A stretch of DNA of 64,000 nucleotides. It comes from Marsupella aquatica (lineage: Eukaryota; Plantae; Marchantiophyta). This document shows positions 1-22,819 of this stretch, in pieces; the stretch's first letter is position 1; each line of letters starts with the position of its first letter. A program made the position numbers and the translations under genes. Location: assembly GCA_973895155.1 (NCBI GenBank), contig OZ316897.1:16722058-16786057 (forward strand). The letters run 5' to 3'. The notes beneath the pieces were generated by a model. It did not search any database. It was given only the letters and a program-made list of their open reading frames with translations, and was not told the DNA's origin.

Positions 1-75
1 GTGTAGATGATTACCATGATTTGGACCCAGTATCTGCACCAAAATTTTTGATATTGATGTATGTTTAACATACAG

Positions 76-1747
76 CTATGACATTGGAGAAGAGTGGGCA
101 ATTGATATGTACCCTTACGATGGAGAAGTTCATTTGTGTTTGATTGACACAAAAAAAGATCCACACCGATTGCGATAGCACATTGTTGGTCCAATTGCAT
201 ACTTGCAAATGCATTCTGAGGATCAAGTAACTGTTCTTGTAGAGAATTACACGGAAAAAAAATGGTATCAATACTTGCTTGATGCAAATACATATGGAGT
301 GCGGTTGAATACCACTTGGATTGATGATATGCCAGCCAATGTTATTTCTTTGGCATTCTTTCCTTTGGACTTTAGTTTCAAAGGTAGTTCAGATCAAGGA
401 CAACTTTCACACCAGGAGATTGCATCTGGTTATGCTCGAGTCTTACATTTGCTGAAAAGAAAGAAGCATTTCTTGTGTAGGACATTGCAGATGGAGCAGT
501 GCATTGAGACAAGTGGACTAACCAACATTGATATTGATCCAGCTGTTCTTTTCCATAAGAAATTTGGAAAAGAAACACTCTCCAACTGGATTGACTTGCA
601 AACTTTGGTTGCAAACAAGGTGAAGGAAGTGCCAAAGTCTTTAGAAGATGACTTGGGAGTAGATATGTCAGAATATGAAGGGGCCAAGGCTGACAAAGAA
701 GCGGTACCAATCATTGATCCCAGTAGAGAGGCATCTCCACAACAAAGTGAGAAGCTTGATAGTGTAGAGCCTCAAATTCAGAGCATTCCTGGAATTGTCC
801 AACAAAAGAAGAAACAAGCTACCAAGCTTGTAGTTTCTCAGCCAAAGAGACGACCGCCAACCACCAAGGCACAAAATGTGCAGAGGAAGAGAAAACAGCC
901 ACAAGAAGAGGACAACGTGGAAGAGATTTTTGCACAACAAAGTGAAAAGATTGAGCCCATTGTACTTCAAATAGGAGGCAATGTACAGAGCAAGCCAACA
1001 ATTGTGCAACCAAAGAGAAAGCCATCAACAAGAAAGAAGTCATTGGGGAAGCAACATAGCAATAGGGATACAGTTGTTGATCTTGTGCAACAAGGAGCAC
1101 TAATCTTACGAGAAGTGGGTGACAATGAAGAGAGTGAGTTACCTGGAGCCAAAGAGATTGAAAAATCTAACAAGATTTTGCAAGAGGTGAAAGATTACTA
1201 TCCTTTTGGAATTAGAACACATTTTGGGATTCCGGTGAAGAATATCACGCAACCTCCTGCTACCATGTGTTATAGGAAAATTAACCTTTCTCATGTTGAT
1301 GAGATAATGACTGGGATGATCTTGCATCCCGAGCAGCAACCTCATCCTGCTGATTTAGTTCCCTACAACCCTCAGACCTTGAAGCCAATGAGTTTTGCAA
1401 AAGATGACATGACTCAATTTCAGAAATTGATGCCAAAGTTAAAGTTCTTTGCTATAAGTGGACAGCATTCTGCACTTGCTGCTCAAAGAATTTGTGAGCA
1501 TGCCAAAAAACAACCTGATCTTCGAGAGCTTGCAAATAAATTGCAAGTACGTTCATATCGCATTTTTAGTGGAGCTACACCCAAAAAGATCTTGCTGGAG
1601 TTCTCTAGTAGCTCAAATGAGATGAACAAGATTTCTGATTATAAATCTCCATTCATTGATACTGTGGAGCATGCAAGAAATCAATACGCTGATTTTGGTT
1701 TTCCAAAACGGCCTGAGGCGGGACAAACAGCAAGTCCAATTTACAAG
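76..1747 (+). pseudogene. Large exon of a multi-exon gene (5' end probably outside the window): Lys/Gln-rich linker followed by a ParB/Srx-like segment
   Basis: Acceptor TACAG|C at 75/76. The frame continues into ORF 203-1822 with one in-frame TAG (176-178). Donor AAG|GTAAGT at 1747/1748. The motif IPVKNI..YRKINLSHVDEI..FFAISGQHSALAAQRI resembles the ParB/Srx (I/V)xxGxHR strand-helix. Confidence 0.55.
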
Positions 1748-1828
1748 GTAAGTTTGCCTTGCATAAAAGGTTTAAGTTTGTTGTACTGTGTTATTTTTCT
1801 GAATCATGAATGCAATGCCTAAGTAACA

Positions 1829-4145
1829 ACCTCACAATGATCGTGAGGTCAACTACTCATATTGAAAAGATATAGTTTCTTTTGACATGTGCAGGAATTT
1901 GAGCATACAGCAAAAATGACCATGGAGAAGAAACATCTTACTGAAGTACATTGGATACTTTTTGCATCTGAGAAGTTGTATTGTTTGTGGAAGGAAGTGT
2001 GTAACAAGTGGCTTGAGGGAGAGCTTCCAGATGGACAAGGTATCATCACTGAAAATAAAAAAGAGTCTAAGCTTCTAACAGTTTCAAATTTCCGGAGTTT
2101 GGAGGGAGGCTTGCAAGATGATGATATCATAGCCATTCTCAAAGAGGTCGAACATGGTGGAGTTCTCCTTAAGAAAGATGCTTCTTACAAAGGTGACATG
2201 CAATCTATGGAAGAGCTTGCCAAAACAACAAAAGTTCTCTCCAAACTGAAAGAGATAATTATTGGATATTATCAAATCACTTTTTCAGACCATTTTCCTG
2301 ATAAATGTACTTGGAAGGAACTATGTGATAAAATTCCCATTGATGCTAGGGAATTGGATAGATGCAGAGGAGTGGCTGGTACCAAGTACTTGATATCTTG
2401 TACTTCTCGGAATATTGCACGTGAGAAAAATATTCTGCATGGTTTAGTATCAAGACTAAATCAACTATTTTATGATGCATTCGGTGGAAGCCAGAGAAAG
2501 AGATTAGAGCCATTTCTAACTTTTTTCACTGACAACTTAATGACAACATGTGAGCCTGGTGCTTTGGAAGAGGCAGCTCCTTTTGTTCCTCTTGCCATTG
2601 TGGATTTTGGAAAACGAAACCAAAAAGAGTGGTCAGTATCCCAGTTGGAGGTGTTTTTTAAGTACATTGTGGAAACACCAAAAAATGATGCAATAATGAT
2701 TGTCATTTTTTTATTCCATGGTCATCTTTACTCCAACGTGCTAACTGCACTTTACAATTTACCCGATATTCACTTACATTTTGAATTTGGATCATTTGAG
2801 AGAGCCGATGGCTACATACATCCTGGGAGGTTTTTCAAAAATGAGCGGGAACAAGTAATTATTGCAGGTATGTAAATTTGAAATTTGTGTTTGGGTTTGG
2901 GTTTATGATACATTGAGAAAACCTCACAATGATCGTGAGGTTTAGAATTATCACTAATTGTAGAATCTAAATTTATTTGAACTTCATAAGTTTACTGATC
3001 ATTTAGTGTTTTTTGGCAGCCGTTTCACACAATGCAAAACAAGATTGGGTTGACATGTTTCCCGAAGGAGATATGAACTACCAATTTGATGAGGAAAATG
3101 ATCGAAATTATCTTTCCAAAACTTGGAAGACTAATCCAAAATCTATTCCAGTGGATGAGTCTAAAGAAGATCGAGAGGAACGCTTGAGGGAAGAAGCATT
3201 CAAGACGCTAAAAAATAGAGCTCCTCGTTATTCATTTTTGGATCAACTTGGAGGTTTAGTTAATCCTGATTGCAAGCCTGCTCGTGTGCTCAACAACATC
3301 ATTCATAAATTTTCTGCACGTGGCGCTACAATTTTTGATTTCTTTTCCGGAGGATCAGTTTTAAAAAGTGCATTCGAGCTTGGAAGAGAATGCTTTGTGT
3401 ATTCAGACTCAAAAAAAGAGTCTGAATTCTTGAAATTATATCCAAATATTTTGAGAACAATTCCTGGAGTTAACAAATTTTGGGAGAAGGTTGGAAAGAT
3501 CAATCATGGTGATCCTCCTGAAGATTCAGAAGTTATTGTTGAGTATGCAATTATTGACGATATTGACGAAGATGAAGATCTTTCTAGATTTGAGGAAGGG
3601 TCGCCTGTTGTTGGTATTCGACAGGATAATCAACATCAAGCTTCTGTTTTGATTGAAAAAATCTTACAATCTTCAAGTTTGAACAAATCTTCATCAACAA
3701 TGAGAAGCCAAAATGATTTGATTAACCTTGCAAGTCCTTCACAGGTAACATCTATTCTTCATTTTATTTGTAGTTTACTTATGAGGTATTTATATATATG
3801 TGAATATAATCTTATGTTGGAATTGTTGGGTCAAAATAGACCAATGCTTGCAGGAATGAAGAAATTACAAGTATTGTTGAAACTGAGACTATGGAGGTAG
3901 TTGAAATAGAGCTGGAGGATATCAAATTAGGCCAGGCAGATTCTTCTCAAAATGAGAATACTGGAAATTAAATACTTTATGTACCAGGTAGCAACTTATA
4001 TTAGATGATAATTTGAATTCAAGCATGGATCATGCTTGGCATTTGAGAAACATGCTCATCTCCTTGAAAAGACAAGTATATATATGTACTTTTTATTGAC
4101 TTCAGATTTTTCACTGATGCAAACCTCATGATTATCGTGAGGTTT
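1829..4145. repeat. Three copies of a ~25-bp palindrome AAACCTCACGAT-N-ATCGTGAGGTTT (1829-1849, 2919-2943, 4121-4145), each in a predicted intron
   Basis: Read directly from the sequence. Each copy departs from the perfect palindrome at the left-arm CpG (CA or TG). Confidence 0.8.
1895..3744 (+). CDS. Next two exons (1895-2867, 3020-3744) of the same gene: divergent beta-class N6A/N4C DNA methyltransferase-like domain
   Basis: GT-AG introns 1748-1894 and 2868-3019 preserve the frame. KPARVLNNIIHKFSARGATIFDFFSGGSVLKSAFELGRECF matches the motif X/motif I pattern KPxxLxxxII..S..GxxVLDxFxGSGT..AAxxLGR. Upstream LAIVDFG sits where DPPY is expected, and NEREQVIIA resembles the HExIL motif. Confidence 0.5.
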
Positions 4146-4534
4146 ATGAGTGATATTTGTACCCCAAATATGTACACAAAAAGCTTGTATTTAAAAAATG
4201 CTAATACGATTGTTCCTTTGAATGATTGTATCAGCCAACTATCATAAGCATTTCTCACAATGAAATGTCACCACTTGACAATTTACAAGAAGAAGTAGGA
4301 CAAAATGATTCATATTCAGAAACAAGAGTACCTGGAATTGCATCTATTGAGTCACCGCTTTGGAGTGATTCATCATCTGAAGAAGGATTGCCTGTTGGAA
4401 TATTTCCATTAGCACCAAAAGGTAAAGATTTTGTTATCTTTTATCTGTGTTCATATTTATATAGGATTTTGAAATTAGTTGTTGTACATTTATTTTACAA
4501 AGTTCTAATTTATTTGTAATTGCATTTGTAACAG

Positions 4535-5669
4535 GTCAACACGATCTTGATCCATGTCACGTTTGGTCTTACCTGCCAGAAAATATAGCCCGAGATCGTA
4601 AATTACTAATTTTTGATCTTAGTGGTTTATTTTTCCGATCGCAATATCTCGGAAAAACAATATGCACCAAGTCAATATCCACGGCAACTGTGCACACATG
4701 GCGTGGTAACATGTGGACAATAAGACCACAAATTCATGAATTTTTGCAAAAGTGTTTCTCAAAGTTTGGCATAGGAATATGGAGTTGTGGAACTGATCAA
4801 GAAGTCCAGATTCAAGTCAAGACTATCTTTGGACCCAAAGAAATTAAAAAATTTCTTTTTATCAAAAATCAACATCATGTTCAAGAAATTCTTGGGCTCA
4901 AGAATAGCAAAGGTGGACCTGTGTTTTTGAAGAACATATCAAAGTTCATTTGGGAAGAACATAGGTATTGGGATGACAAGACCACTGTGTTGATAGATGA
5001 CTTACCTTATAGAACTTCAACAAATGCTTCTCATTCAGCATTATTTCCACCTACATATGATGGAAATCAAAAAGACAATTTTCTTTTGAAAATTTTATGG
5101 CCTTGTTTGGAAAAAATGGAAATGGCCTGTGATATCCGTGCATATCTTCAATTAAATGAGCCAAAATGGTCCATGGAGAGTGCATCTCAAGATGAGATAA
5201 TCTTCACCTTCAAAGAAGAGGTCTTTTGAAAAAGTTTACACCGCCACAGATGATCAAATACGCTGATGTTTTGCATATTTCTCAATACGAGATCAGTTGG
5301 GGCGAGAAGCACTTGGTCACAAATATGGGAGCTGTTGATAAAATGAGTTATGAAGAGGTTTGCAAGATTGGAAAACATCTTGGAATGCGCGGTTGGCATA
5401 CTGATCATGCTTATGATCCCATACGGTTTTTGTCGTTGGTTCAAATGACACGAGATCTTTCTTCAAAATTTAAAAACTTGCATACTCGAGATGGTTGTAA
5501 TCGTGATAGAGAAGTAGATAGGCAGGGAAAATTAGGAACATGCTCAAATAAGCATTGTTCAGAGTGTCCTTTTAGTTCAATTTTCTTCAATCTTGGCCGA
5601 GCGCCATTAGATAGAGTAGACAAAGTTCAATGTGCAACTCAATTATATATAAATATTTGGTTTCTTTAA
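4535..5669 (+). pseudogene. FCP1/NIF-like HAD phosphatase-fold exon, then a probable frameshift (~5225) into a Cys-containing tail
   Basis: Acceptor ACAG|GT at 4534/4535 gives RKLLIFDLSGLFF (degenerate DLDxT motif I), in frame with ORF 4690-5229 (IRPQIHEFLQKC, GIWS, KNISK, TVLIDD..R), which are typical FCP1-homology motifs. Confidence 0.65.
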
Positions 5670-6559
5670 AATTTTAAACTTTGTGATTCCCTTCAATGAT
5701 CTATTTTGACCCTCATTTTGATCATGTAGTGAATAGTAGCACTATGTATTTGATTTTCAAACACAACTACGCAAGAATACTTGTTCATTTGAATGATGTT
5801 TTGAATATAGTAGTCGCACTAATGGTTTTTTACTAAGATAGTAAATAATAAATTAAACTTGTACCTACATCCCAACATGGCTGAATTTTTGAAGAATCAC
5901 AAGCACATCTATCAAATTTGATAACATGTTTGGAATTTTGTTAAATCAATTTTGGAAATTTAAATAACATTTTTTGGAATTTCTTGACATTATTTTTGGA
6001 ATATTCATTACAAGTTTTGGAGAATTCAAATTCCAGTTTTAACGAATTGGTTGATAGAGACTTAATAACCATTTCTATCTGAACAATTGCTTTGTGCATG
6101 ATCCAGATATGCTTACAGAAAGGTACAACCACATGCAAGGAAATCAAGGCACATCATGTCCACAAGGCCCTTGAAGAAATGAGAAGGAAAAATTCCTTAA
6201 GTGATGAAATGCAGATCCATTAACATGAAATATTACAAACATGATTATCTTGTGAGCCGAGTGCCAAAAGTGGCACTCAGTCTACCATCTAGAGTATGTC
6301 ACTCAGTCTCTACCATCTAGAGTATGTCATCCAGAGTGTCCCTTAGTCTACATGATGTAGTCCTGCCCGAAGTATCTTGAAGGTTTAGTCTGTGTTCAAA
6401 ACGCAAAACACCAGTACAAATTGTATAAGTACCTGATTGCAAATTTACAAAGGCCCAACCACCTAAAAAAATAGAACGCATTCATACAAGCAGCTCAAAG
6501 AATTCTCATATAAGCATTGTCGCTAGTTATCTGGCCACATATATCTCCCAGACCCTTAA

Positions 6560-7060
6560 TACACAAGGACACAGTCTAGTTTATACATTGGGAGAGTCCT
6601 TTGTGAAGTCCATGTAAAAGGATATAGGACATGTATGGTCCTTTCTGCGGTTAAGGACTGTGTCATTGACGAAAGAACTAGTCCTTTACCATGACTTGCA
6701 CCAAGGATATAGTCCTTTAATTACCATGACTTGCACCAAGGACATAGTCCTTTACCATGACTTGCACCAAGGACATAGTCCTTGAATATGTCTTGCACCA
6801 AGGACATAGTCCTTGAATATGTCCTTAGTCAAGGATCTAGTCCTTGAATGTGTCCTTCACGAAGGACATAGTCCTTCACAAATCCTTTTTAGTCCTTTTG
6901 AAAGGACATGGTCCTTTGCATGGTCCTTTCCAATATGACTCTGTCCTTATCCAAGGACACAGTCCTAGTCCTTGTAAAATGACCGAGTCCTAGACATGCA
7001 ATCAAACCAAAAGGAGTCGCTATGTAGAGGAGTCCTTACTAACAACAAGGACACCTTGGA
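6560..7060. repeat. Array of AAGGAC-N3/5-GTCCTT mini inverted repeats, including ~31-bp tandem units (6680-6830)
   Basis: Repeated units such as ccatgacttgcaccaaggacatagtccttt, plus many further ggac..gtcc pairs. Confidence 0.8.
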
Positions 7061-7240
7061 CATGTCTTTACATAAGAACATAATCCTTACACATTGACGG
7101 ACTAAGGATGGGTTACAGGCAAAGCTCAATGACATTGTATTGCACTGCATGGTTAAGCTAGTGCATGAAAGTGTTGATGTAGATTGCAAGGAAAGTAGGA
7201 AGTTGGGCAATTCAGAAATTTACCTCAATAGACGATTCTC

Positions 7241-10200
7241 TCATGACCACAAAGAATCTGTAATTGCTGCAAGTGTGTCTTTGTCCAATTTGAACTTTCT
7301 GCTACCACCCTTCCGTCCTGAAGTATCACATGGGCTTAGCCCAAATCGAATGTGAATTACTGACTTTGCAAGACTAAAACTTGGTGGTGATTTGTCTAAA
7401 TAGACATGTGTGGCACAATCCTGGAACTGGTTGCATCCATCTGCCCTTCAATACCAGTTCACCCTGCTGAAGTTCTTGCTCGTATCCATCCACAAATGTC
7501 TCTGTGACATCATGTAGGACCTCCTCGCATTGCAAAATGTAAAAGTCTACATCCCAATGATTTGGGCGCTCTGCTTCCACTGCATAGAAATCACCCAACT
7601 GCACCAACTCTGCCAAAGACCCAGAGTCCCCTTCCAACAGTCCTTCACCAACTCCCATTTCTTCAAGGTCTGCTTTGACATCAATAGGGAGAATCCCTTT
7701 CACCATCTCAAGCTTATATAGTCCTACAAGATCTCGATTCTCACATTTTTGTGGTTCTTCATCAAGACAGTAAGCACAAAAACAGCATAGTTCCCTCACT
7801 TGCAACAGAGTTGAAAGTCGGTTACTAAATCCATCAAAACAATGCATTGCTCTACATCCTGGGATTGCATCACAGTCCCATTTCTTGTGCCGATTCATAG
7901 CTGTAGCACCTATTTCCCAAAACAATCGCCTCACAAGCAAAACATCACCATACTCTCTCTCAATACCAATGGCAAACTTCTCCTTGCAAAATGCAACTAC
8001 ATCATGAGCATTTTCCAAGCGAAAGCCATGCGTCCCCTTCAACTGCTCTCTTTGTATCCCGCTCTTGATGTGGCCTCCAAGGGCATCCTATCCATGCAGA
8101 AAAAGTCCATTCAATGTCACACAAGCATACACTAGACTCCAAAGAATAATGTTCTTGTATAACGGTAAAGAAGCTCATATGAAACTAAATAATGAGAACA
8201 ACACAGTGAATTCAAATATTGGAGGTAGAGTTCCACACTTACAGCTACACCCTTTCCATGTCCTGAAGCATGGAAAAACCATTTCATCCGTGCACCAAAT
8301 CTCTTGTAATATCTTGAGACATAGTAGAAGGTCTACAAGCCTTAAATTGTGAGGCAGCTCCATCGGACCAAACCCAATGCTGAGTGAATTCAATTCCCTC
8401 TTGCTTCATCCAATGGTAATGAGCATCCATGCAATGCTGCACAAACAAGGTGTCGTGAGTATTATCATCACTGATATAGAAATGATAGTCGGCGATGATA
8501 TCTCTGTCACCAGCTTCACTCTGTGCCATACTCACTGTCCGTCCCACTGCAGCCTCCATAGATTGGTGCACATCTTCTCGATGTCTATAGGTCACATGGA
8601 TCAACAAAGTAATCTGTTTGTTGTCCCAATGTTGCGATTGAATCTCATTTTGCGTCTTGAAAGTGTAATTTTCAGAGAAGTCAATTGAAGACACTATGGT
8701 TCCTCTTGGGAACGTCTTCAAACACAATCTAAACTGGTCACTTTGCCAGCGAGCTCTAAAATCATGAACAACAAATGACTTCATTCTAGCTTCGACCACG
8801 TTCCTGAAATCACTTACAGACGTAGTCTTATACACCATCCTCAAGCGTTTAGACTTTTTTTGTGAACTCTCATCACTTCCCTGCTTCTTTGCTTTCTTCA
8901 TTTGTAAGTTGTCATCTAACTCTTGATATTCAAAACTCTGCCAACTAATAGTTAGTTGTTGTGCGGAATCCAACTCCCATGGACACCAGTCCAGATTCAG
9001 CGTTCCACAATCTACACAAACTCCCATAATACAGTCCTTCTTGTGCCATACCTGCCCCTTGGTTTTCTTACACAGCGCACCTTCCATCCAACCTCGAACA
9101 TAGGTAATGTGTGTCCTTGAAGCTACACAAGAAACACCTAATGGAATGGCCACTGATTTACAAGTACAACACTGACAACTACACTCAGAGGGGTGATGAA
9201 ACTTCCTGAATTTGTTTAGTGCCTCTTTCAGGAGGTCCATTTCACGTTGAAGCTACACAAGAAACACCTAATGGAATGGCCACTGATTTACAAGTACAAC
9301 ACCGACAACTACACTCAAAGGGGTGATGAAACTTCCTGAATTTGTTTAGTGCCTCTTTTAGGAGGTCCATTTCAACGTGCTACTTGCAGCAGCATACATT
9401 TTGATCCTTCATGGTTCGAATGTAAAACGGTTTCAGATAACTGAAGGACCGCAGGCCTATAGAAACAACATTGTTCTCAGCCTTGCACCAATCTTGGAAC
9501 TTGAAGAAAAATTCAACCTGTAAATAGACATCAACAGGGTGTTAATAGATTACCCAAATTCAGGCTCTCAAATTTGTATCGTTGGCTACAACTGAAGACG
9601 AGACTAAAGAATGCAGAAAATTTTAAGAACTCTCAAAGAAATTGAAGTAGCCAATGTGAGGATATCCTACCTCTGTATCCTCGAGCCAATGTACTTTATG
9701 TTCCTCATGTTGATTTGGTCCAAGTCGCTTTCTAGCTATCTCTTTCTTGCCTGGTGAGATTCTAGTGTATGTGCTCCAAAATAGTTCAACAATCTTGCGC
9801 ACCTCTACACTAATCTTGTCACTCCTGGTTTTCCTTTCCCCCATTGGGTATTTTATACATTGGTTCTCATCTATCTGCTTCCGCATGTTTGATGCTTTTT
9901 GAATGTTGTGTCTCTTGATACCAAAAGCCTTAGCTAAAGAGGACTGATATCGCTTGCCAACCGTGGACTGTCCGACCATAGCTACCAACACTGAATGCTT
10001 TACAGCCAAGTAATCTTTCTTTTTACCCCACTTCACAATTTGCAAGGTCTGCCTAAGGTCAGTTATAGCAGCTCCTACAGATGCATCTAACTTAGGGGTC
10101 CCAAGAGCTGCAGGATGATATTCTCTCAATGAAGAATGCAACCAAAATCGCTCTAGGACTACCTTCCTTGCGGATAAGTTGAAATCTCTCATTTTTTTGA

Positions 10201-10870
10201 ATAAGATTGAAGTTACCTCGGAGACCACTGAATCAACCACTCCTCTCGTTCTATTGGGCGTTTCCTCAGCAAGATGACTAGACAAACTTAAACTTCTCAT
10301 CCTCTGAAGTCTCCAATATGCAGCTCGTTTTCTAGCAGCATCTTTCTCCCTGAATTCTCTGGCCAAATGAGGGTCCTCTTGCATGCTTTGTAGACAGTGA
10401 GCTCCTTCACCTAATCGCACACGCAGTACTTTGAGGGCGGCTTGCTTTTGCCCTATCCTAGAGCACAAACGTGACAATGTTTCTTTGCCTTCAGCATAGT
10501 CATTCTTGATGTTGTGCAGCTTCAACACAGCTTGAGCGGTTGCCTCTCCATGTAAGCGCAGCACCTCATTCCTAGCAGCAGTTAATAATACCTCACTTTG
10601 CTGCTGAGCATGAAGAAGCAATTGATCAGCTTGCTGCTGAGCATGAAGAAGCAACTGATCAGCTTGCTGCTTGGCATCAAAAATCAGGCCCGTACTATTG
10701 CCGTCTTCCGGTTGAATGCCTCTATTCAATTGCTCAGTGTTGACCTCTTGGCACTGCCCGATAGGCTTGTCATACCATGACTTTTGCCTTCAAAAATTCC
10801 GCCGTTCTCTTTTTTCTTTCTCTTCTTGGGATTCATCTTGGCGCCCCGCTTGGCGCCGCACTGGTGGCAT
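7241..10870 (-). pseudogene. Sola2-like DDD cut-and-paste transposase, intron-containing and decayed
   Basis: Motifs DFSENY..QNEIQSQHW..QITL, ISDDNTHD and WSDGAASQFK. After a 1-nt frameshift (~8332) and splicing of intron 8088-8242 it reads GHGKGVA|DALGGHIK. Upstream KPFY..CCCxxH. A second intron spans 9518-9670. Lesions: stops at 9380-9382 and 10790-10792, and a 130-bp duplication. Confidence 0.7.
9117..9375. repeat. ~130-bp tandem duplication inside the transposase exon
   Basis: agctacacaagaaacacc...ggaggtccatttca occurs at 9121 and again at 9251. Confidence 0.9.
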
Positions 10871-11625
10871 CTCGCTAAAATTGATGGCAGCTCCTACAAC
10901 ACGATGAGCTTTTGAACGTAAGTTCAAAACAATATTTCATAAGTTAAAGAGGCCATGGTCCAAGTTAAATGAGGCTCTAGATGGCAAAAATTCATGTGGG
11001 AACACCCGCACTCAGGCAAACAAAAAATGGAGTCTAACAACATTGAGATGTCGCGCGGCTTACCCTTTACCAACGAGGTGAACACCCTACATTGCACAAG
11101 ACGGTCGCCAACTTTTTTGCTAGTTCTATGGATGATCTTTAGAATTCATCGAATCCGCTTGAGGCCAGAAGCTCTCTGGTAAAACTCCTGAAGCAAACCC
11201 GCAAAACATTACCGCAGATAGTCGACAGCCCTTCAATTCCCATGGCTCCCTGCCTCTTCCGTAGAGTCCTAGCTGAGCCTAGCTAGGACTCCTTAGTCTA
11301 CACATAATTAAGTATTTTGAAATTCAAATCGCTACTTAAGTCATGTTTCATTGGTATTCATTACCACTTGGACTTCCTTTTAAGTCCTTTTGTCCTTAAC
11401 CATTGAATCATTAATGGATGCTACTCCTAATCAAACCTCCTGGCATGCTTCCAAATGGACTGCTGGAGGTGAGGGGAAGATCCCACCTTCCATTCTCAAT
11501 AAAGCAATCCAGGCCATTCGGTGTAACACCTTGTCCATCCCTTTGAAAAAAGGGAAGGACTGGAATCCTTGTGGTGGAGATTTTGGATATCCTTTTTGCC
11601 CCCCTCAAGCTTGCATTTGACCCTT

Positions 11626-11786
11626 AGAGTTATATGGGACAACGGTGAGAAAGGACTGGCCCAACATAAACCTTGAGACATCGGTGTTTTCCATGGTGGC
11701 TAATGACTATGACACATAGAGTTATATGGGACAACGGTGAGAAAAGACTGGCCCAACAAAAACCTTGAGACATCAGTGTTTTCCAT
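11626..11786. repeat. Short direct duplication (~70 bp, period 92)
   Basis: agagttatatgggacaacggtgagaaa...gtgttttccat occurs twice. Confidence 0.8.
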
Positions 11787-12017
11787 TAAAAGACTTGGTC
11801 AGGAACATATAGTTATACACTTCTATCTTGAGCAGATGCTATATATTTGCTGAACAAATATATGTTGGACCATTTGTAGTTTGATTTGGCCTACAAATCA
11901 TTTCTTAGTAGCAACCAGGGTAGTGTGATGCCTAGACAGGAATCACTCGGCCGGTTAAGTGGGTAAAGCAGGAAGGCACCCTAGGAACACCTTAGTATAG
12001 TGACAAAACAAGGAAAA

Positions 12018-12023
12018 TATAAA
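12018..12023 (+). promoter_or_regulatory. Candidate TATA box near the LTR 5' end, upstream of the LTR ORF (equivalent site at 22902-22907)
   Basis: TATAAA is conserved in all four LTR copies and is followed by a telo-box-like TTAGGGTTAGGG (~12087-12098). Confidence 0.4.
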
Positions 12024-12038
12024 CAATTAGGGGCAACC

Positions 12039-15000
12039 ATGGAACCCGGGCAGAGGCCGGAGGTAAGGCTGAGGGTGAAAACCCGATTAGGGTTAGGGCG
12101 CGTTAAGCGTCGGCGGCTAGGAAGGATCAACGGGAAGAAGGACCGGCAGAGGAGAGGGGTAAGGAGCGCTTGCAGGAGATGGTGGCTCATTTGCGAGCAC
12201 GAACTAGGCAGACGACTACGGGAGGCCAACTACTGTCAGCTGCTTAGGCAAGCACTCGGGGAGAGAGTAGATACCGACGATCAACCTAAGGAGGGTGTGA
12301 GCAACGTCAATCAAGCGGCACATTTATGGGGATGCCTGTTCGAACGGGCAACTGAGTACATCAAGACTTACGAGGACGAGGAGTCAGAAAGGGCAGCTCG
12401 AGAACGGCAGGAGCTCGCTCGATTGTGGGAGCTGTAGAAGACGGCTTTCTTAGGAGGCGAACTCATCAAGGACGAGTTCCTGTGGACGCCTACTTCCAAT
12501 CAACTCGACGATCTTCTGTTTTGCAAAGACAGCGTCGTCGGCATCCGAGAGGCCATCAAGAACTGCAACGACATACACTGGGAATTAAAGGGTAGCACGG
12601 AAAGGTGGACCCAGGCAACGGTGCTAGGAGAAACCTCCACGGCAGCAGAGATGAAGAGGAAGGGAGCCATCAACGATGAAGCCACCCCGACAAAAAGAAC
12701 GAGGTCGGCGGCACCAAAGAAGCCAGCCGAGCAGCAGAGCAGGAGGCAGGGAGAAGCCGAAGAGGAGGAGGTCGATCCCATCAAGGCCATTCCAACCAGG
12801 GATGACACCTGGAAGGGCTGGGCGGCAACCCTACCGGTGGAGGTGCAACTACATTTTGCACGGGAGGAGGATGCATGCTTTACGGCCATGCAGACCAAGA
12901 AGTACCAAGGCTTCATGGCCGGATCCGGCTTGGAGGCCTTTGTAAGATTACCATGGCTGAAGCCGGAGGTACCGGAGTCAGACCTATTAGAATTCGTGGG
13001 GTCATGGGAACCCGAGACCAATTGCACGAGGATATATGGGAAGGATTTCTATCTTACTCCCAAGGTGATTGCCGAAGTGTTTGGCTTGCCGATGGGCAAT
13101 AAGACCAAAGTTGATACCAGGAAGACCTTGCCTGACAAGGAGTTCCGGTCGTTCCCCGGGCCATCAACGAAGAATGGCTTCTTCCGGAACACCTGCACCA
13201 ACCCGCACATAGGAGAGATGATCGACTTCTTGCGGGTGACCATGCATTGTAACTTGCCGAGGGCAGAGATCGGCAAAGCACAGGTCTATCTGGCAGAAAG
13301 GCCAGACCCAAGCCGGGACTACAACGGGTACCTCCTCAACCAATTGAAGAAGATCTTAAAGGAGGAGCAGCAGGTAATCGGCATGGGGAGCGTGTCGCGG
13401 CTTGGCTATCACATGCCGCTGTTGTGCCGGTATGCCAGAGGTCAGACTTTTGCCCCGGTACTTCCCCTGCAGGTAAGGGCACCCGAGGAAGCTCCAACAC
13501 CGAGGCCGTTGGCTGAGAAGCCTCAACCACCTGTTAGTCCTACGATCGAGCAGGTGTTTAGGCCCAGGAAGGAAGACTTGCCGATGCAGCAACCAGGCAT
13601 GCAGAGTCTGCTGAAACTACTGGAGAAAGAAAAGAAATCGGCATCGGCAACAACAACGGCAACGGCAACAATGCAGGACACTACTACAGAGGTAGGCCTA
13701 CACCGGCTCACAAGAAAAAACCCCTTTGCTGGAGACAAGGAGAGAATCAGGCCGGAATCCAAGCCAGGTGTTCGAATGTACGTGGGAACCTCAAGCTCCG
13801 AATCTGAGGCAGAATTGCCTGAAGCTCCTACCAACGAAGAGGAGAGGGAGAAGCCGGACGTCCAAGAGGTAGAGGAGGTAGTGGAGGACTGCAGCCATGA
13901 TAATTCCGGCTATGGGTCGGACCATCACGTTCCAGGAGTAAGGACCTGTGGCCAGTTTGTCCCCACACTTCCAAGGGTAGTGCGAGGGGACCCCAACCAG
14001 CAGAGTAGCCCTGAGTCTCCCCCACCAGATGTTGCTCCCCCGAGCTTCGACGGCATAAAACAGACGGTGCAGGAATTTCAGGAGCGAATCAAGCAGGAGG
14101 AAGAGGCCGCCCTGGCTAAGGAAAAGGATTTACCAGGAGGAGATTGGCCGGAGGACATCAGGCGGCTAGCCGAAAAAGGAAGCAAACCTCTAGCCACGAT
14201 TGAAGAGATCCGTAGGACGGCTTGGGAGCAGAGGCCACGATGGGCGATGCCGATCACTTCTACTTACTCCACCTACGCTAAGAATAGAGCCATGGAGTAT
14301 GGTGAGATGTGTGGGGAACTTGCGCTCGGCATCTTTGGAGAGGAGTTGGAGGTAGGACCCTTTTTCCATAGGGAGCAGTTGGAGAAGCACCAATTAGAAG
14401 AAGCGGTGGCTTTAGAGAGAAGCAAGAAGGACGAGGTCATTCGGCGGCTTAGGAGGATGGAAGCCGAGATTGAAGATCTAAGGGCGGCCAAGAAAGCCCA
14501 AGATGAACTGCGGATTAAACGACATGAGCTGAACATCATGCAGGGGCAGTTGGACGCCGCGCAGGCTGATAATCAGAATATCAAGGATAAACTGACTCAG
14601 ACGCAGGAAGAGTTGGCCGACACGATCAAAGAAAGGGAAAAGTGGAAGCAAGAGCTGAAGAATACAGAGGAGGCCCACATAACAGCCAACAGCCGGGCCG
14701 TGGCGGAGACCCAAAGAAAGGAATGGGCGTTGAAAGGGGAGCTCGAGAAAATCCACGGAGCCCTTGAGCAGAAGGAGGTCGAGTTAGGGAAATCCTATCA
14801 AGGGATTATGGCGCTGCAGCAGGAGCTTGCGTCCCTGACGGCCAGCTTCAAGGCCGACCTAAGGGAGAAGGACGAGATGCTCGAACAGACTTACGCCAAG
14901 ATGAACCAGATGGAGTCTGTCATCATTGCAGAGCTCGACAAGGAGCTAAGAGCAACCCAGGAGGAGAGGGCTACCTTGAAGAAGGAATTGGAGGAAGCCC

Positions 15001-15662
15001 ACAGGGAGCAGGAGGAGGCCAAAAACGAGCTGGAGGGGGCACGTAAGGACCTGGATGAAACCCAAGAGGAGTTGGAGGAAATCACGAGGAAGATGGAGAA
15101 CCTACAGCGGCGGGCCGACAACCAAACAGAGCGGCTGAAGAAACAAGCCGCAGTATTTAAATGCTTAGCTGCAGCAGGTCCATCTCCTGTTGGGACAAAC
15201 CAGTTACCAGGGGTGGTAATTGCCGAAGGACAAGCCGCGCCACCTGCACCAGTGCCGGAAGTAAGTGGGAAGGGGAAGGGACCAGCTGCCGAGCCACCAA
15301 CGAAGAAGAGGCGGAAACCTTCAGGGTCAAGGAGTAATACGACTTCACAGGCCGTGGTGATCAAGGAGGTAGACCCAGCACCGACCCCAGACAGGGTCAC
15401 GGCTAAGGATCCAACTACCCTAGGGGAAGGGGAGGCCGAAGCCGTGGGAGTGGCTGAAGCCGAAGCCGTGGGAGTGGCTGAAGCCGAAGCCGTGGGTATT
15501 GCCGAGGCCGGTGTCGAGGCTGAAGCCGAAGGTGGACCCAGTCAGGCCGATGGAGAGTTGACTCGGTCAAGGGCAGGTAATCTGTCAGTAGGCGGGCCAA
15601 CGGCAGTGGCTGAGGAGGAAGTGTTGGGGGCGTCCATTGAGGATCCACCACCGGTGTCGTGA
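12039..15662 (+). pseudogene. LTR-encoded protein, 5' LTR copy (PMD-like domain, coiled coil, NLS); nonsense codon at 12435-12437; 12621-15662 is open (1013 aa)
   Basis: ORFs 12000-12437 and 12621-15662 share a frame. This TAG is CAG in the other three LTR copies, and the ATG of MSNVNQ is GTG here. Confidence 0.85.
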
Positions 15663-16587
15663 CGGTGCAAGGGCGCCGTTCCTTTTAGGGAGGGCGGACG
15701 TGGAGGGAGGAGGCGTGAGTGGGCAGGGCGGGCACGGATCTCCACGTTTAGGATTAGGATCAGAACCAGGAGCGGCCCTGACACTTAGCTTAGTGGGATT
15801 GCGGTCCCACTGGTAGGAGCAACACTTGTGCTCCTGCCTTGCTGTACATAGGTAGATTCGGGCAAGTAGATTACTGTTAAGTAGATTAGGCTTACGATGC
15901 AAAGAATGGCGGATCCACTACCAGGATAAGTACCTGGGCAGCGGGGAGCTCAGGGCCTCTTCTTTAGCAAGTTTTTAGTTTGCACCAGCCGGGCTGGGAT
16001 CAAGTAGTACGAGAAGCTCTCGGTTAGTCATACAGTGACCCTTGTGTATATTCATGTTTCCTCATGCCTAAGAGCTGAATAGAGTTGGCCTCACGGCTTA
16101 GTTCGCAGAACTTGTGTATGAGATGTACTGTTTGTATGGCAAGTGCATGGTATGACTCAGTCAGAATGAGTCATTTTGCTATTTGTGTGTCGCATTAACT
16201 TGTGTGAAGAGTGCCCACATCAACAGAAGGAAGGAAAGTAAGCAGGGGAGTGAGAGTTGGATGTGTCGAGCTGAGAGAGGTCTTAGCGGCTTAACCAAGC
16301 CTATTGGGGATCATTCCGGCGGCGGAATCCAAACATACCTAACAAGACGGAGGGGAAGACAGGGGAAGACAGGGGAAGGCCTATATTAGGCCGGCTACGT
16401 ATCTCATGACCCGATGAAGGATCTGTCCAGTATATGTGTGTAAAATGTTAATAGTAGTAGTAGAAGGTTAGCAGCGTCCCATGCCGCTAAGCCGCGGAAA
16501 CGGCCTCGCCAAGCACGAAACCTGCGGGAATCGGCTTGAGCTGGGGGGTTTCTTGGGTTTAGGGAGCCATGGGACGCACCACATTTT

Positions 16588-16605
16588 TGGCGCTAGATGG
16601 AGGGG
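16588..16605 (+). other. Primer binding site, probably tRNA-Asn
   Basis: TGGCGCTAGATGGAGGGG starts 4 nt after the 5' LTR. It is complementary, with one mismatch, to the plant tRNA-Asn 3' end CCCUCCUUCUAGCGCCA as I recall it. Confidence 0.8.
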
Positions 16606-16652
16606 GCATTTCTTAAGCCGTGAGATATGAAGTTAGAACGGAAGCGTAGGTA

Positions 16653-19601
16653 ATGACTGACCTTACGCCGAGGGAAGAAAGAGTGATTCAACGGGAGAGA
16701 GCTCGACTGCAGCAGCTCGCCGGGTGGCATGATACACAGCGACTGAGAGGGGCAGAAAGAGCTGGTAGCTCCGAAACTGGAAGTGGCGTCGAAGAAGACA
16801 TACCAGAAGAGGAGTCGGTAAGGAGAAGTGAGTCTCCAACCGACATGGGGGAACCAGAGGCACGGCTAGACGAGAGGCCAGGGACCAGATTGAGCCAGCG
16901 GTCGCGCATACATTATAAGGCATTTCATGGGAGAGGAGATGAGGATCCGGACGAATGGTTGGATGATTTCGAGGGAACCGCTGCAGCAAATGGAGAATCG
17001 GCCATCAAGATGCAGATTCTTCCCGGCCTGTTCAAGGGTGAGGCTAGGCCTTGGTACAGAGCATTAGATGTGGAAGATCAAGCCATCTGGGATATCTTCA
17101 AAACACTCTTTGTTAAGGAGTTTCGACCCATTGGAACTTCAGAACTAGCAGTGCTGAAGTTGGGACAACTTCGGTTCAAGGAGAACAAATCCTTCAGGAA
17201 GTTCTTGCAACGCTTTCAGAAATTGGTAAGACGTACAAAGACCAATGCATCTGAAGGTATGCAACTTCAATGGTTGGTGAATGCTTTGCCACAGAAGATG
17301 AGTTTTGCAATTAGGAAGGAGAACCCGGAGACTTTAGCCGAAGCAATTAAGGATATTCAATTATACATTAATGCAGATATCACAAGCCGGAAGAAACAGC
17401 TTAAGTCTGAGAGTTCCTCATCAGAGGAGGGATCACCCCATAAGAAAAAAGATAAGAAGAAGAAACATTCCAAGAAGTCTAGAAGTGATAAGTCAAGCTC
17501 GGATAGTGGGAGTAGCAAGAGTGAGTCATCTTCTAGTTCTGAAGAAGAAAAAACTAGGAAAAGGAAGGGCAGAAGGAGAGGGAAGACGAAAGTCAAGATG
17601 GAGGCTAAGCCACCAGATAACATCGTAGCCCTTACCGAGCAACTTAAGGCTATCATTGCAGAGGTAAAACCAAAGAAGAAGGTAGTACAGGAGGATAGCT
17701 CTGTATGGTGTGCCTTATGTTATAAAACCGGACACCATAAAGATGCTTGTCCTAAGCTTAATACTAATCATGTTCGGCATGTGGCCGAGATCAGACCATG
17801 TCAGGGAGAAGTAGAGTACTTTTTGGGAGATGCCGCTGATAGTGTTTTCGGCATCAGTGAGACTGGAGCACGAGACCTATCCAACAGACCTGCATCTCTA
17901 TGGTCAGGGTTAAGGAACAATCCAGGAGAGATGTATCCTCGGATTATTCAGAACCCGTCAGTACCTCCTAGGCCGAATGTGCAAAGATTTGCGGCGTGCT
18001 ATAATTGTGGTCAACCTGGCCATTTTGCTAGAGAATGCCCGAATGCACGCAAACAGGGTGATGGACAACCAGCTCAGCTATGTATGGGATGCCGACAGGA
18101 AGGTCATATGCTAGGGCAATGTCCTACTTGGTTGGCAGGCCTGGCCGCAAATCATAAGCTTTTGCCGATCAAGATCTTACCGCCAGGTACTACCCCCGGA
18201 GGAGTTCAAATCAACCACATCGAACTAGGATGGCAAGAGGATGCCGAGGCAGAGTTCGTACCATCTGATGATGAGGCCGAAGCCCTATCAACCTTCTCAG
18301 AGGAGGATTTAGATCATGATTGCTACCGGGTCTCTACTCGATCTACCAGAAGGAAGGAAAGGTGGGATGGGCTGGCCAAAAATAAAGGGAAGGTTACGGA
18401 GGAAAGGATCGACTCTTCGTCAACATCAACAGAAGGAGAAGGGAGGGCTCCGGCAATACAGGTAAGCCATGAGCCCACCAGTGAAACCAATCCTTCACAA
18501 GATAGCGACTTCAATCGAGATCATCCTAAGTTGTTCTACCCCTCTGTTACGGCTAGTGTTAAGGAACAACTAAGAGAATTAGAAACCCTGGAGAATACCG
18601 AAGCCATTGCCAAGGATGTAAAACGAGCAAAAGCATTGTTTGCTTCGGAAGACCCAACAGCTGTGGAGACTAGCGTGGCAAAACTGGCCGAATCCAAGAC
18701 GGAAACACCACCAGAAGAGAAGCCGATTGTTCCCTATGACCTGGCTAAAGATGTACTAGAATCTAGAGTCTCGGCAACAGTAGGTCAACTATTGAAAAAT
18801 AGCCCGTACTTCCGGAAGCAATTAAGGAAGGCTATTCTCGGCAAGCCGAGATTACCCAAGGTAGCAACCAGATCCGACGTACTAATGATAGAAGAAGATC
18901 AAGGAGCCCCAGCATTACCATTAATGATTCAAGGAGAATTATTACTACGGGTACCCATCGATGGAGGATCAGGGGTATGTATTATGATTGATTCAACAGC
19001 AAAAGGGTGGGGTCTAACACCGGAGATGACTGGAAGAGTGTTGAACATGGCCAATGGATATCAGGTCATTCCGACGGGAGTGTTAACCGGCATCAAGACA
19101 GAGATAGGAGGTATCTTCTTTAGCATTAACTATGTAGTAATGAAGCCGGTAAATCCTACGTCATTCCGGCTATTGATTGGTAGGCCATGGCTGTACCTAG
19201 CCGAGGTAATAGAAGATTGGGGTAAAAAGCAGTTCACTTTCGGGACCCCCTCTATCACGGTATCCTGGGACACTAAGGATGACCGTAGGAAAAGCATAAG
19301 GGAAGTAGATGGGTACGATAGTGGACTGGAGTCAGCCGATGAAGTACGTTGGTTAGAATGCTTCACTAACCTAACCGAAGAAGGTGTCTTTGGACCAGAG
19401 GTACCCCCCAGCGGATTATGGCAAGAACCAATGGAAGGTGACTTGGAAGAAGAAGACGAAGAGGTCGAGGACTGCTTTACAATAGAATCCACCTTTTTAG
19501 CTGCAATTCCGGAGGAAGTAAAGGATGTAGACCAATTGGATGAAACGGCTAAGTGGGGAGCAGTAGCAGGGACAGTGGATTTTCTGCAGGCGTTGTGGTA
19601 G
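16653..19601 (+). CDS. gag: Gag-protease polyprotein (capsid, three CCHC zinc knuckles, aspartic protease)
   Basis: F.G..DEDPDEWL..F capsid motif; knuckles CALCYKTGHHKDAC, CYNCGQPGHFAREC and CMGCRQEGHMLGQC; protease VPIDGGSG...LLIGRPWL. Confidence 0.93.
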   Translation: MTDLTPREERVIQRERARLQQLAGWHDTQRLRGAERAGSSETGSGVEEDIPEEESVRRSESPTDMGEPEARLDERPGTRLSQRSRIHYKAFHGRGDEDPDEWLDDFEGTAAANGESAIKMQILPGLFKGEARPWYRALDVEDQAIWDIFKTLFVKEFRPIGTSELAVLKLGQLRFKENKSFRKFLQRFQKLVRRTKTNASEGMQLQWLVNALPQKMSFAIRKENPETLAEAIKDIQLYINADITSRKKQLKSESSSSEEGSPHKKKDKKKKHSKKSRSDKSSSDSGSSKSESSSSSEEEKTRKRKGRRRGKTKVKMEAKPPDNIVALTEQLKAIIAEVKPKKKVVQEDSSVWCALCYKTGHHKDACPKLNTNHVRHVAEIRPCQGEVEYFLGDAADSVFGISETGARDLSNRPASLWSGLRNNPGEMYPRIIQNPSVPPRPNVQRFAACYNCGQPGHFARECPNARKQGDGQPAQLCMGCRQEGHMLGQCPTWLAGLAANHKLLPIKILPPGTTPGGVQINHIELGWQEDAEAEFVPSDDEAEALSTFSEEDLDHDCYRVSTRSTRRKERWDGLAKNKGKVTEERIDSSSTSTEGEGRAPAIQVSHEPTSETNPSQDSDFNRDHPKLFYPSVTASVKEQLRELETLENTEAIAKDVKRAKALFASEDPTAVETSVAKLAESKTETPPEEKPIVPYDLAKDVLESRVSATVGQLLKNSPYFRKQLRKAILGKPRLPKVATRSDVLMIEEDQGAPALPLMIQGELLLRVPIDGGSGVCIMIDSTAKGWGLTPEMTGRVLNMANGYQVIPTGVLTGIKTEIGGIFFSINYVVMKPVNPTSFRLLIGRPWLYLAEVIEDWGKKQFTFGTPSITVSWDTKDDRRKSIREVDGYDSGLESADEVRWLECFTNLTEEGVFGPEVPPSGLWQEPMEGDLEEEDEEVEDCFTIESTFLAAIPEEVKDVDQLDETAKWGAVAGTVDFLQALW

Positions 19602-22600: not shown

Positions 22601-22819
22601 AGGTATAGTAGGTTTCCAGGAAAGCTTTACACTCGCTGGTTAGGACCCTTTAGAGTAACCATGATGTTCCCCAATGGCTCCGTGCAATTGGCCAACATTA
22701 CGGGAGAGGTATATCCAGTTCGCATCCATTATGACCGCCTCAAGAAATACTATATGGACGAAGATGAAGTTGTTCGCGAGGACGCTTCACAATTAAGTGG
22801 GGAGCTATGTGATGCCTAG
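19553..22819 (+). CDS. pol: Pol: reverse transcriptase, RNase H and integrase (in the -1 frame relative to gag-PR)
   Basis: RT motifs RVCQDYRKLN, MPFGLCNAP and FIDD; RNase H motifs DVS, EREAL and TDH; integrase HHCC, GIDYIGP, SDRG and NGLTER; GPF in the C-terminal domain. The stop codon lies 12 nt inside the 3' LTR. Confidence 0.96.
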   Translation: MGSSSRDSGFSAGVVVEPTGSTTPSIIGKELNTKGSAYKPITRAKQIEALLEAERAQRPNSQEQEVDEMDRHDPEPRQEGEPTTNSKPNRPVRGQSMDTKEGTDSASPAEIPVYGGMRLERLEAELDPNLKKQINMIQARQYRKLDLGEGRELNLGRNLAPELEKEISDLLIEFQDVFAWSHQDLKGVDPTLGEHRIDLMLGAKSFRQPIRRMNPKYSLLVKTEIDKLVEAGFITPVLHSDWVSPIVIVPKKAGPDGKPKIRVCQDYRKLNEATLKDHFPLPFTDMVLDMVASHELYSFMDGYSGYNQIRIRQEDQIKTAFITEWGIYVFNRMPFGLCNAPAMFQRLMVNIFHDYLRKFMEIFIDDFAVFGKASKHAKYLKKTFMRCREVGLKLHPDKCFFAVTEGVLLGHKVSRKGIEIDKGKLAVWLDIMQPKNIKDVRSFLGCIGYYRRFIKDFAKLALPLTNMLKAGADFKPTPERVTAVVELKQMLVEAPVMIAPDWNKDFHVFVDVSGFCIGSVLSQLDEKGRDHPIYFASRQLADAERNYSTTEREALGVIYSCKKFRHYLLGYKVIFHTDHESLKYLVNKPDLTGRVARWILLLQEFDYELRIKPGKLHANADFFSRITGKPATDCIDDRFPDEELFVVEIAGTWYPEILQFLSTSRLQPGLSREQAAVFVRKVRQYQCIKGILHKHGINGTIQRCLEKREVKRVLRAMHGEEAGGHFAPVTTSKKILNAGYWWPTLHKDVYQFIKQCDPCQRAGGPRASTRHPLHPILPLAPFEKWGIDYIGPLKPLTHPRRNKYIILATDYATKWVEARPTTKDDAITTARFMYEQIFTRYGAPLELVSDRGTHFLNDIISRLNEQYLVKHRPTTPYHPKANGLTERANGIIGKILNKTVAQNKLDWDDKLFAAVFAYNLAYKSTTGHTPFFLTFGQEALVPMQLEIPTFQVTIEERASAEESLKEREYRLEALEEARMISAERVEYRQNIMKQQYDKRLKVVSIHTGDLVLLYDSRYSRFPGKLYTRWLGPFRVTMMFPNGSVQLANITGEVYPVRIHYDRLKKYYMDEDEVVREDASQLSGELCDA
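19577..19636 (+). promoter_or_regulatory. Candidate -1 programmed ribosomal frameshift signal (G_GAT_TTT plus H-type pseudoknot)
   Basis: Heptamer 19577-19583 is in the gag frame, then a 5-nt spacer and a perfect 10-bp stem (19589-19598 with 19614-19623). Loop GCCGA (19603-19607) can pair with TCGGC (19632-19636). Confidence 0.75.
22795..22805 (+). other. Polypurine tract
   Basis: AAGTGGGGAGC ends 2 nt before the 3' LTR, within the integrase coding tail. Confidence 0.75.

Follow-up and report, generated by a model that had tools for sequence, protein, structure and literature searches.

A ParB-fold and methyltransferase-fold gene with replaced catalytic motifs in the liverwort Marsupella aquatica

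Introduction

Fusions of ParB-like and N6N4 DNA methyltransferase domains are frequent in phages (10.1101/2025.10.10.680097). Why, then, does a gene of this kind stand beside a transposase in a liverwort, and what might its product do? The gene lies at the left edge of a 64,000-nucleotide stretch of Marsupella aquatica DNA (contig OZ316897.1, positions 16,722,058–16,786,057), here called the window. An earlier note, made from the sequence alone, read positions 76–5669 as one decayed, intron-containing plant gene that encodes ParB-like, beta-class methyltransferase (MTase)-like and FCP1-like domains. Comparison with homologous proteins, predicted structures and related public DNA runs points to a real ParB–MTase gene whose canonical catalytic motifs are replaced throughout its family.

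Gene structure and the state of the window copy

Two GT-AG introns in the window (1748–1894 and 2868–3019) both keep the reading frame, and splicing exons 77–1747, 1895–2867 and 3020–3744 yields 1123 codons with a single stop, at 176–178. Four homologous proteins (P0094, 1009 amino acids; P0096; P0097; P0090) cross the exon 2/3 join without a break and in the window's register, and three of them, P0097 being the exception, are continuous over the exon 1/2 join as well; their contigs may be transcripts or intron-less copies. Because the introns preserve the frame and continuous homologous open reading frames (ORFs) span both joins, the ParB–MTase gene is judged to be real, with the following exon structure.

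1–1747, plus strand: exon 1, whose frame reaches the window's left edge in related runs, here with a frameshift near 40 and TAG at 176–178; it encodes a conserved globular N-terminal domain (about 60–640), then a basic low-complexity linker, then a ParB/Srx-fold domain
1748–1894, plus strand: intron 1, phase 0, at a position common to the family
1895–2867, plus strand: exon 2, a helical region of about 200 residues, then the first half of a beta-class MTase fold
2868–3019, plus strand: intron 2, phase 1, its join colinear with continuous homologues
3020–3744, plus strand: exon 3, the second half of the MTase fold, with DFFSGG at 3337–3354 and an acidic tail

The place of intron 1 is also visible among the homologues. 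Soon after an [FWY]x-V motif at this place, 33 of the 46 homologous ORFs with a scorable end come to a stop. Similarly, P0024 and P0027 are 81% identical over the 153 residues up to the intron-1 place and then diverge. Only P0027, an annotated Calypogeia model that is predicted rather than RNA-based, runs on into exon-2 sequence.

The window copy of the gene is broken, and near-identical copies lack the breaks. These occur in four public DNA runs (X1–X4; two organism codes, two studies, contigs only), whose match to the window is about 99%. Every one of them has one additional base after 40, a sense codon in place of the stop at 176–178 and 16 additional bases after 5199; counted through the frame, these differences open exon 1 as far as the window edge and reunite the two parts of exon 5. 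The decay described in the earlier note is thus borne out, with all three lesions (the frameshift near 40, the TAG and the split near 5199) intact in every run. Some single-base differences fall in homopolymers and could be assembly errors. Within the 40 best-supported of 284 difference rows, 28 exon differences between the window and the runs are listed (11 synonymous, 17 not).

A gene start at position 76, as first proposed, did not hold. The frame opens to the left edge in all four runs once the base after 40 is present, the conserved N-terminal domain reaches further upstream, and the gene, as judged from these alignments, begins left of the window. The N-terminal domain is beta-rich and common to at least 12 of 13 aligned homologues; profile searches of Pfam, NCBIfam and the PDB returned no relative of it.

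The ParB/Srx-fold domain

1151–1747, plus strand: ParB/Srx-fold domain by structure model, with GQHS at 1460–1471 in place of GxxR

The predicted model of the window's exon-1 domain has a predicted local distance difference test score (pLDDT) of 92.5. In Foldseek, the first 28 of 34 rows listed are of ParB/Noc/PadC/KorB/Srx/SbnI type, counting Atu1540, which we take to belong to the ParB-type group. In VIA comparisons, the top 8 of 32 matches all fall in the ParB/Srx superfamily, led by PadC (Z 8.9; root-mean-square deviation (rmsd) 3.1; 99 residues aligned) and KorB (Z 8.8; rmsd 2.6; 93 residues). The ParB-like fold noticed from the sequence is therefore matched at the level of modelled structure. 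At the sequence level, a Pfam scan found no ParB or other match on exon 1 and no ParB_N on 14 homologues, and the A1 profile search found no ParB. Among the Atlas clusters for this part, 26 of 30 are unnamed and the top two are viral; others correspond to fungal DUF3723 (31% of members) and ParB_N (35%; score 0.93).

The arginine of GxxR is absent from the whole family. Over 82 ParB domains, its column holds serine in 70, threonine in 4, leucine in 2 and a gap in 6, with no arginine; the histidine is retained in 75 of the 82. Correspondingly, GxHR occurs in none of 93 family proteins. Changing the GxxR arginine to alanine abolished nucleoside triphosphate (NTP) binding in the ParB folds assayed (10.1101/2025.10.10.680097).

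Intronic palindromes as candidate sites

1829–1849, unstranded: 21-bp palindrome, copy 1, in intron 1
2921–2941, unstranded: copy 2, in intron 2
4123–4143, unstranded: copy 3, in the non-coding stretch 3988–4234

The 21-bp palindrome occurs at three sites in the whole 64 kb, against 0.01 expected, and all three lie in non-coding sequence of the gene; the intron share is 0.16, and its cube puts chance at about 0.004. All copies have the same right arm; the left arm departs from it at a single CG, read as CA in two copies and as TG in one.

The palindromes might alternatively act as pre-mRNA hairpins that control splicing or stability, the protein being a scaffold carried by the transposon and not a binder of these sites in DNA. 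Every copy, all of them intronic, is predicted to fold stably (z −4.0, −3.5 and −5.4), and the exon at 3840–3987, described below, may be alternatively spliced. Such folding is expected of any palindrome, however, and arms that differ at a single CG fit the decay of a DNA dyad. Rfam has no family at these sites; its two chance matches in the window both lie outside the gene. Among the rival explanations this hairpin reading survives best, and it is nonetheless improbable.

Four palindrome loci in viral contigs were set aside as unrelated: none has a tblastn match to any family protein, and three resemble T-tailed terminators.

The beta-class methyltransferase fold

The MTase fold was modelled on P0097, a homologue of exons 2 and 3 (mean pLDDT 47.8, core about 60–85). 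Foldseek matched this model to M.RsrI (E 1.2e-7), and 18 of its 34 matches at E ≤ 0.001 were listed, all beta-class. VIA aligned it to M.MboIIA (Z 15.2; rmsd 3.6; 191 residues), with the first unrelated fold at Z 6.4; the aligned residues, 224–490 of P0097, span both exon halves of the fold. The model contains the permuted Rossmann arrangement, in which motif IV precedes motif I. The beta-class MTase-like fold proposed in the note thus finds support in the modelled homologue. An Atlas match of the MTase part to PF01555 (score 0.86) is a lead. Pfam N6_N4_Mtase matched exon 3 alone (E 7.9e-5; 23.1 bits, below the cut-off of 26.7) and P0071 at 17.6 bits; P0094 and P0090 gave no match to this family, and exon 2 no Pfam match.

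Atlas clusters were also retrieved with residues 455–745 of P0094, and 13 of 30 have no common Pfam family. The top three (330–368 amino acids; score 0.93–0.94; taxa unrecorded) may represent a larger MTase-like pool.

All four motifs named in the note were located: GQHS (1460–1471), DFGK (2603–2614), DFFSGG (3337–3354, within KP..DFFSGG..LGR) and DLSG (4615–4626). The motif [DNSH]PP[YFW] occurs in none of seven family proteins; DF[AG][RK] occurs in six of the seven, as does DFFS[GS]G. The latter aligns to DFFAGSG, the motif I of M.RsrI and the place of the S-adenosylmethionine-binding FxGxG, with a gap of one residue. In the P0097 model, the Asp of DFAR terminates strand 254–258, as motif IV would. 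From the fold and the motif order we infer that DFGK occupies the position of DPPY; DPPY or SPPY positions and stacks the target base (PMC10406627).

Because the canonical motifs are absent family-wide (no arginine in 82 ParB domains, no DPPY-type motif in seven proteins), the GQHS and DFGK types of replacement are read as conserved family traits and not as decay of the window copy. The replacements that the note had called degenerate are real, and the catalytic residues, which the note had suggested looking for in other copies, are kept in neither set. A pseudo-enzyme role, which the note had weighed equally, gains from the loss of both motifs across the relatives examined, and catalysis has probably been lost.

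Could the protein instead be an active MTase of altered chemistry, in which DF[AG][RK] and DFFSGG bind S-adenosylmethionine and a flipped base, so that N6-methyladenine (6mA) or N4-methylcytosine (4mC) is placed on the DNA or RNA of the element itself? The modelled beta-class fold is complete, Asp and Phe are constant in six of the seven proteins, and eukaryotic 4mC writers of bacterial origin are known in Marchantia (10.1101/2021.02.12.428880) and rotifers (PMC10406627). Against it, replacements affect both prolines as well as the Tyr position, and motif I lacks one residue relative to M.RsrI. Furthermore, the Marchantia enzymes retain TSPPY (10.1101/2021.02.12.428880), and inactive transposon-borne MTases have a precedent in DIRS1 (PMC4738411). 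An active enzyme is therefore unlikely, a little more so than the hairpin reading. A co-opted N4C or N6A writer of the rotifer or Marchantia kind, as raised in the note, is likewise unlikely, since neither SPPY nor DPPY was found in any of the seven proteins.

Family and distribution

A phmmer search with exon 1 returned 93 representatives at E ≤ 0.001 among 1.84 billion, most of them single-exon ORFs called on raw contigs. Seven of 22 looked-up proteins are named to species (five from Riccia sorocarpa, one from Calypogeia fissa and one from Diphasiastrum complanatum), so that the named relatives come from two liverworts and one lycophyte. In a midpoint-rooted FastTree tree of the 82 ParB domains of at least 130 residues (shorter hits left out), the five Riccia proteins are scattered over at least three branches distant from one another. 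Searches for homologues with exon 2 and with alignment A4, which covered only 30–89 amino acids, were empty; both were weak searches. Scans for related loci found none in metagenome contigs and none in viral contigs, and tblastn gave no close phage or plasmid relative (best E 0.7 and 0.02). The literature searched, mostly without subscription journals, holds no description of this land-plant ParB–MTase family.

The NIF/HAD exon

3840–3987, plus strand: likely exon, with TAA at 3969–3971 that is either a natural protein end or the result of a one-base frameshift common to related runs
4235–4421, plus strand: exon 4, a Ser/Glu-rich linker whose in-frame ATG would permit a separate NIF gene
4535–5669, plus strand: exon 5, a NIF/HAD-fold domain (DLSG at 4615–4626) and a C-terminal extension, in two frames near 5199

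The earlier note placed the NIF domain in the same gene as the ParB and MTase domains. It had already seen the in-frame TAA, which is confirmed; the fusion is possible only by a splice from 3744 to 4235 that skips 3840–3987, and it stays unproven. The skipped stretch is exon-like in composition, with GC 0.36 and T 0.25 against 0.24 and 0.46 in the preceding intron. The TAA is retained in X1, whose contig over 3600–4322 departs from the window only at two listed places and in one intronic gap. Because 3840–3971 is exon-like and the TAA is kept in X1, the default splicing path would stop translation short of NIF, unless the runs share a one-base frameshift in this stretch. That NIF is fused in the mature protein is accordingly a somewhat doubtful prospect.

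Exon 5 is unbroken in all four runs and split near 5199 in the window. It matches Pfam NIF well above the cut-off (E 7.4e-13; 48.9 bits against 21.8), and its other best matches are UBLCP1 (E 0.0068) and HAD-IIID (E 3.2e-6). The FCP1/SCP phosphatases of the RNA polymerase II C-terminal domain (CTD) carry DxDx(T/V). Exon 5 shares with the NIF/HAD phosphatases (UBLCP1, FCP1/SCP) a nucleophile Asp and a DD motif; unlike FCP1/SCP, its DLSG lacks the second Asp of DxDxT. Given these best matches, the missing Asp and the unproven fusion, the suggested action on the polymerase II CTD receives no support.

Exon 5 has no match among the 105 proteins compared, and a different tail closes the long homologues; NIF was probably captured at a later stage. 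A diverged copy of the C-terminal region of NIF (window 5132–5561, of which 5132–5417 in X3) has another upstream neighbour and lower depth in X3, with pieces in the other runs, and would fit capture of a host fragment.

The probable carrier unit and the neighbouring transposase element

5880–6056, minus strand: unit end, AT-rich repeats, with TC at 6054 after A and several unlike flanks in related runs
6056–11923, minus strand: separate DDE-type element, with a broken transposase at 7374–10789; the gene's unit is nested within it
6359–7031 and 11265–11652: clusters of AGTCCT/AGGACT repeats of the DDE-type element

Contigs that match the window left of 6056 continue into long, unlike flanks that disagree with one another (agreement 0.62–0.68). 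Such contigs among the matches listed comprise two at 6055 and three at 6056 in X1, two in X2 and two in X3. Rightward from 6056, the sequence has one common, other left neighbour in all four runs. Taken together, unlike flanks on the left and one common neighbour at the empty site are most simply read as a gene unit that ends at 6054–6055 and was inserted in the subterminal region of the transposase element. The gene thus probably sits in a mobile unit separate from that element, which we label Sola-like by assumption. The sequence that adjoins the empty site on its left does not recur in the window: a search gave one match with two mismatches, at chance level.

On the minus strand, 6055–6053 reads A and then TC, followed by AT-rich repeats, and the shared block ends at T6055, which could belong to the element rather than to the host. 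Helitrons have a 5′-TC end joined to a host A (PMC4778049, PMC10288648). Whether the unit is of Helitron type is, on these letters, an even call. A Helitron would also have a 3′ hairpin with CTRR, a RepHel gene and no target duplication, and the far end of this unit lies left of the window.

A host gene that was domesticated for some cellular function in liverworts and lycophytes and simply lies among repeats would explain why intron 1 is kept across proteins less than 45% identical, why the motif residues are so strongly conserved and why annotated models exist in Riccia, Calypogeia and Diphasiastrum. It sits poorly with the several flanks at one unit end, the many distant paralogues within one Riccia genome, the many fragmentary models and the broken window copy, and it is a distinctly unlikely explanation.

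Of the note's proposal that the gene is transposon cargo, mobile-element cargo in general stands, and cargo of the adjacent transposase does not, since the gene has its own unit end nested in that element. As a fixed accessory of the Sola-like DDE transposon the gene is least likely of all: the two lie adjacent, tail to tail, and each has breaks in the window that are absent at the listed places in the runs, but the run flanks at 6056 show that the gene is not a constant part of that element, the transposase side meeting a different common left neighbour in all four runs and the gene side several others, and summed depth rises there (X3 about 65 to 103, a weak indication and not a copy number).

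The transposase has no informative Pfam or NCBIfam match; SDG and GHGKG motifs are present, and its frameshifts at 7405, 8130 and 8327 are missing from all four runs. Inside its gene, a 130-base tandem duplication (9117–9374) is not in runs X1 and X3. Tandem repeats of 31 bp with AGTCCT/AGGACT (6359–7031 and 11265–11786) stand in opposite orientation at the element's two ends; these subterminal repeats probably bind the transposase.

Other features of the window

A Gypsy-type long terminal repeat element follows from 11924 (window 11924–27000), with gag-pol at 16650–22819. Its extra coiled-coil ORF (1074–1156 amino acids) is repeated at 12438, at 23100 and, on the minus strand, near 34359–38047 and 48864–52426. 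ORF fragments at 45878–47190 and 53228–54817 resemble parts of En/Spm (CACTA) transposases in their motifs. An exon at 59127–59726 resembles an ABCG transporter ATP-binding domain (GPSGAGKST) and likely belongs to a host gene.

Relation to known systems

The closest parallel is found in red-algal Plavaka transposons, in which PAG2 combines PF01555 with SET and PAG3 combines ParB with a 2-oxoglutarate (2OG) oxygenase beside inverted repeats proposed as sites; these accessory genes have moved between transposon superfamilies (10.1101/2025.02.11.637652). Both cases appear to join a eukaryotic DNA-transposon accessory function, PF01555-type MTase and ParB-like domains, nearby inverted repeats and movement between transposon superfamilies. 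They differ in that Plavaka has the two domains on separate genes, whereas the liverwort gene has ParB and MTase in one chain with both motifs replaced; furthermore, the dyads here are single and intronic, and the observed unit end is not CACTA-like. No SET, 2OG oxygenase or Plavaka transposase was found in the ORFs scanned; the left part of the unit lies outside the window.

In the order of its domains, a ParB fold followed by a beta-class MTase fold, the protein is like the ParB–N6_N4_MTase fusions of phages and prophages (10.1101/2025.10.10.680097, PMC4738411). Unlike them, it has introns, an extra N-terminal domain and a helical insert of 200 residues, and it lacks the GxxR arginine and DPPY. 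Srx is the main eukaryotic ParB fold, and the word 'plant' is absent from the main text of the survey (10.1101/2025.10.10.680097). Eukaryotic MTase clades derived from ParB–terminase loci are described in algae and chytrids, and none of those seen matches this family (PMC4738411).

The fold itself is that of M.RsrI, M.MboIIA, CcrM, M.PvuII, rotifer N4CMT and Marchantia MpDN4MT1, a Rossmann fold circularly permuted so that motif IV precedes motif I, yet no (D/N/S)PP(Y/F) occurs in the seven proteins of this family. The Marchantia (10.1101/2021.02.12.428880) and rotifer (PMC10406627) enzymes retain SPPY, and the published motif description of MpDN4MT1 sets it apart from this family, in which SPPY was not found. 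A kept MTase fold with replaced catalytic residues is instead shared with METTL14 and with the inactive MTase domains of DIRS1, the latter transposon-borne (PMC4738411); these belong to different MTase clades and have no ParB fusion.

The anti-silencing VANC proteins of VANDAL transposons are reportedly accessory proteins that bind motifs in their own element. They provide a functional analogy only, with no sequence or fold relation found.

A proposed role

The explanation we favour, although its chances stand slightly short of even, is that the gene is an accessory of its own multi-copy transposon, perhaps Helitron-like, and encodes a non-catalytic protein that binds element DNA, likely at the palindromes. 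A phage-type ParB–MTase fusion would have been the source of the accessory protein, which would have kept its DNA-binding and dimer surfaces and lost catalysis. It would bind the dyads in the introns of its own element without methylating DNA, and so might favour the element's survival, most plausibly by countering silencing.

Several observations pull the other way. The ParB domain model has no Foldseek ParB match at E ≤ 0.001 (best 3.8e-3), and its VIA Z of 8.9 barely exceeds the level that the tool calls common. The MTase fold was modelled on a protein 37% and 41% identical to window exons 2 and 3, with low overall confidence, and the motif tally covers few sequences, of which P0090 and P0094 form one 90% cluster. 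The DFGK–DPPY register was not reproduced by hhalign, which gave the motif-IV half a probability of 0.09% against plasmid and phage MTases and, in a whole-domain run, confidently aligned the motif-I half alone. The Asp and aromatic residue retained at the motif-IV place could serve an altered enzyme. The flank evidence comprises nine contigs from three runs at 80% likeness, with no X4 row among the matches listed, and the matching part of these contigs may be short. An A|T target needs T, but the empty site in the runs has C, and no helicase or 3′ end was found within the window.

Within the accessory-gene explanation, it can tentatively be proposed, by analogy because ParB and beta-class MTases dimerise, that the protein dimerises on the dyads and helps the element to recognise itself or to escape silencing. 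A bolder and rather unlikely extension is that a widespread transposon family of early land plants rebuilt a parS/ParB-like self-recognition, in which a double pseudo-enzyme of phage origin would load nucleotide-free on the intronic dyads, the dead MTase fold would read bases or shield them against host methylation, and the captured HAD domain would add a phosphoprotein contact in the window's subfamily.

Significance

Transposon proteins that bind the sequence of their own element and act on it are known in few cases. With a ParB–MTase accessory gene in liverworts and a lycophyte, the case made by the red-algal Plavaka elements would reach the land plants. The 21-bp dyad is a defined candidate site, which makes the idea that the ParB domain binds its own element directly testable. 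Similarly, a ParB fold with conserved GQHS and no arginine offers a natural test of the fold's role without its NTP-binding residue. A bacterial-type N4/N6 MTase domain in a bryophyte genome is no proof that 4mC or 6mA is written, which bears on the debate over these marks in plants.

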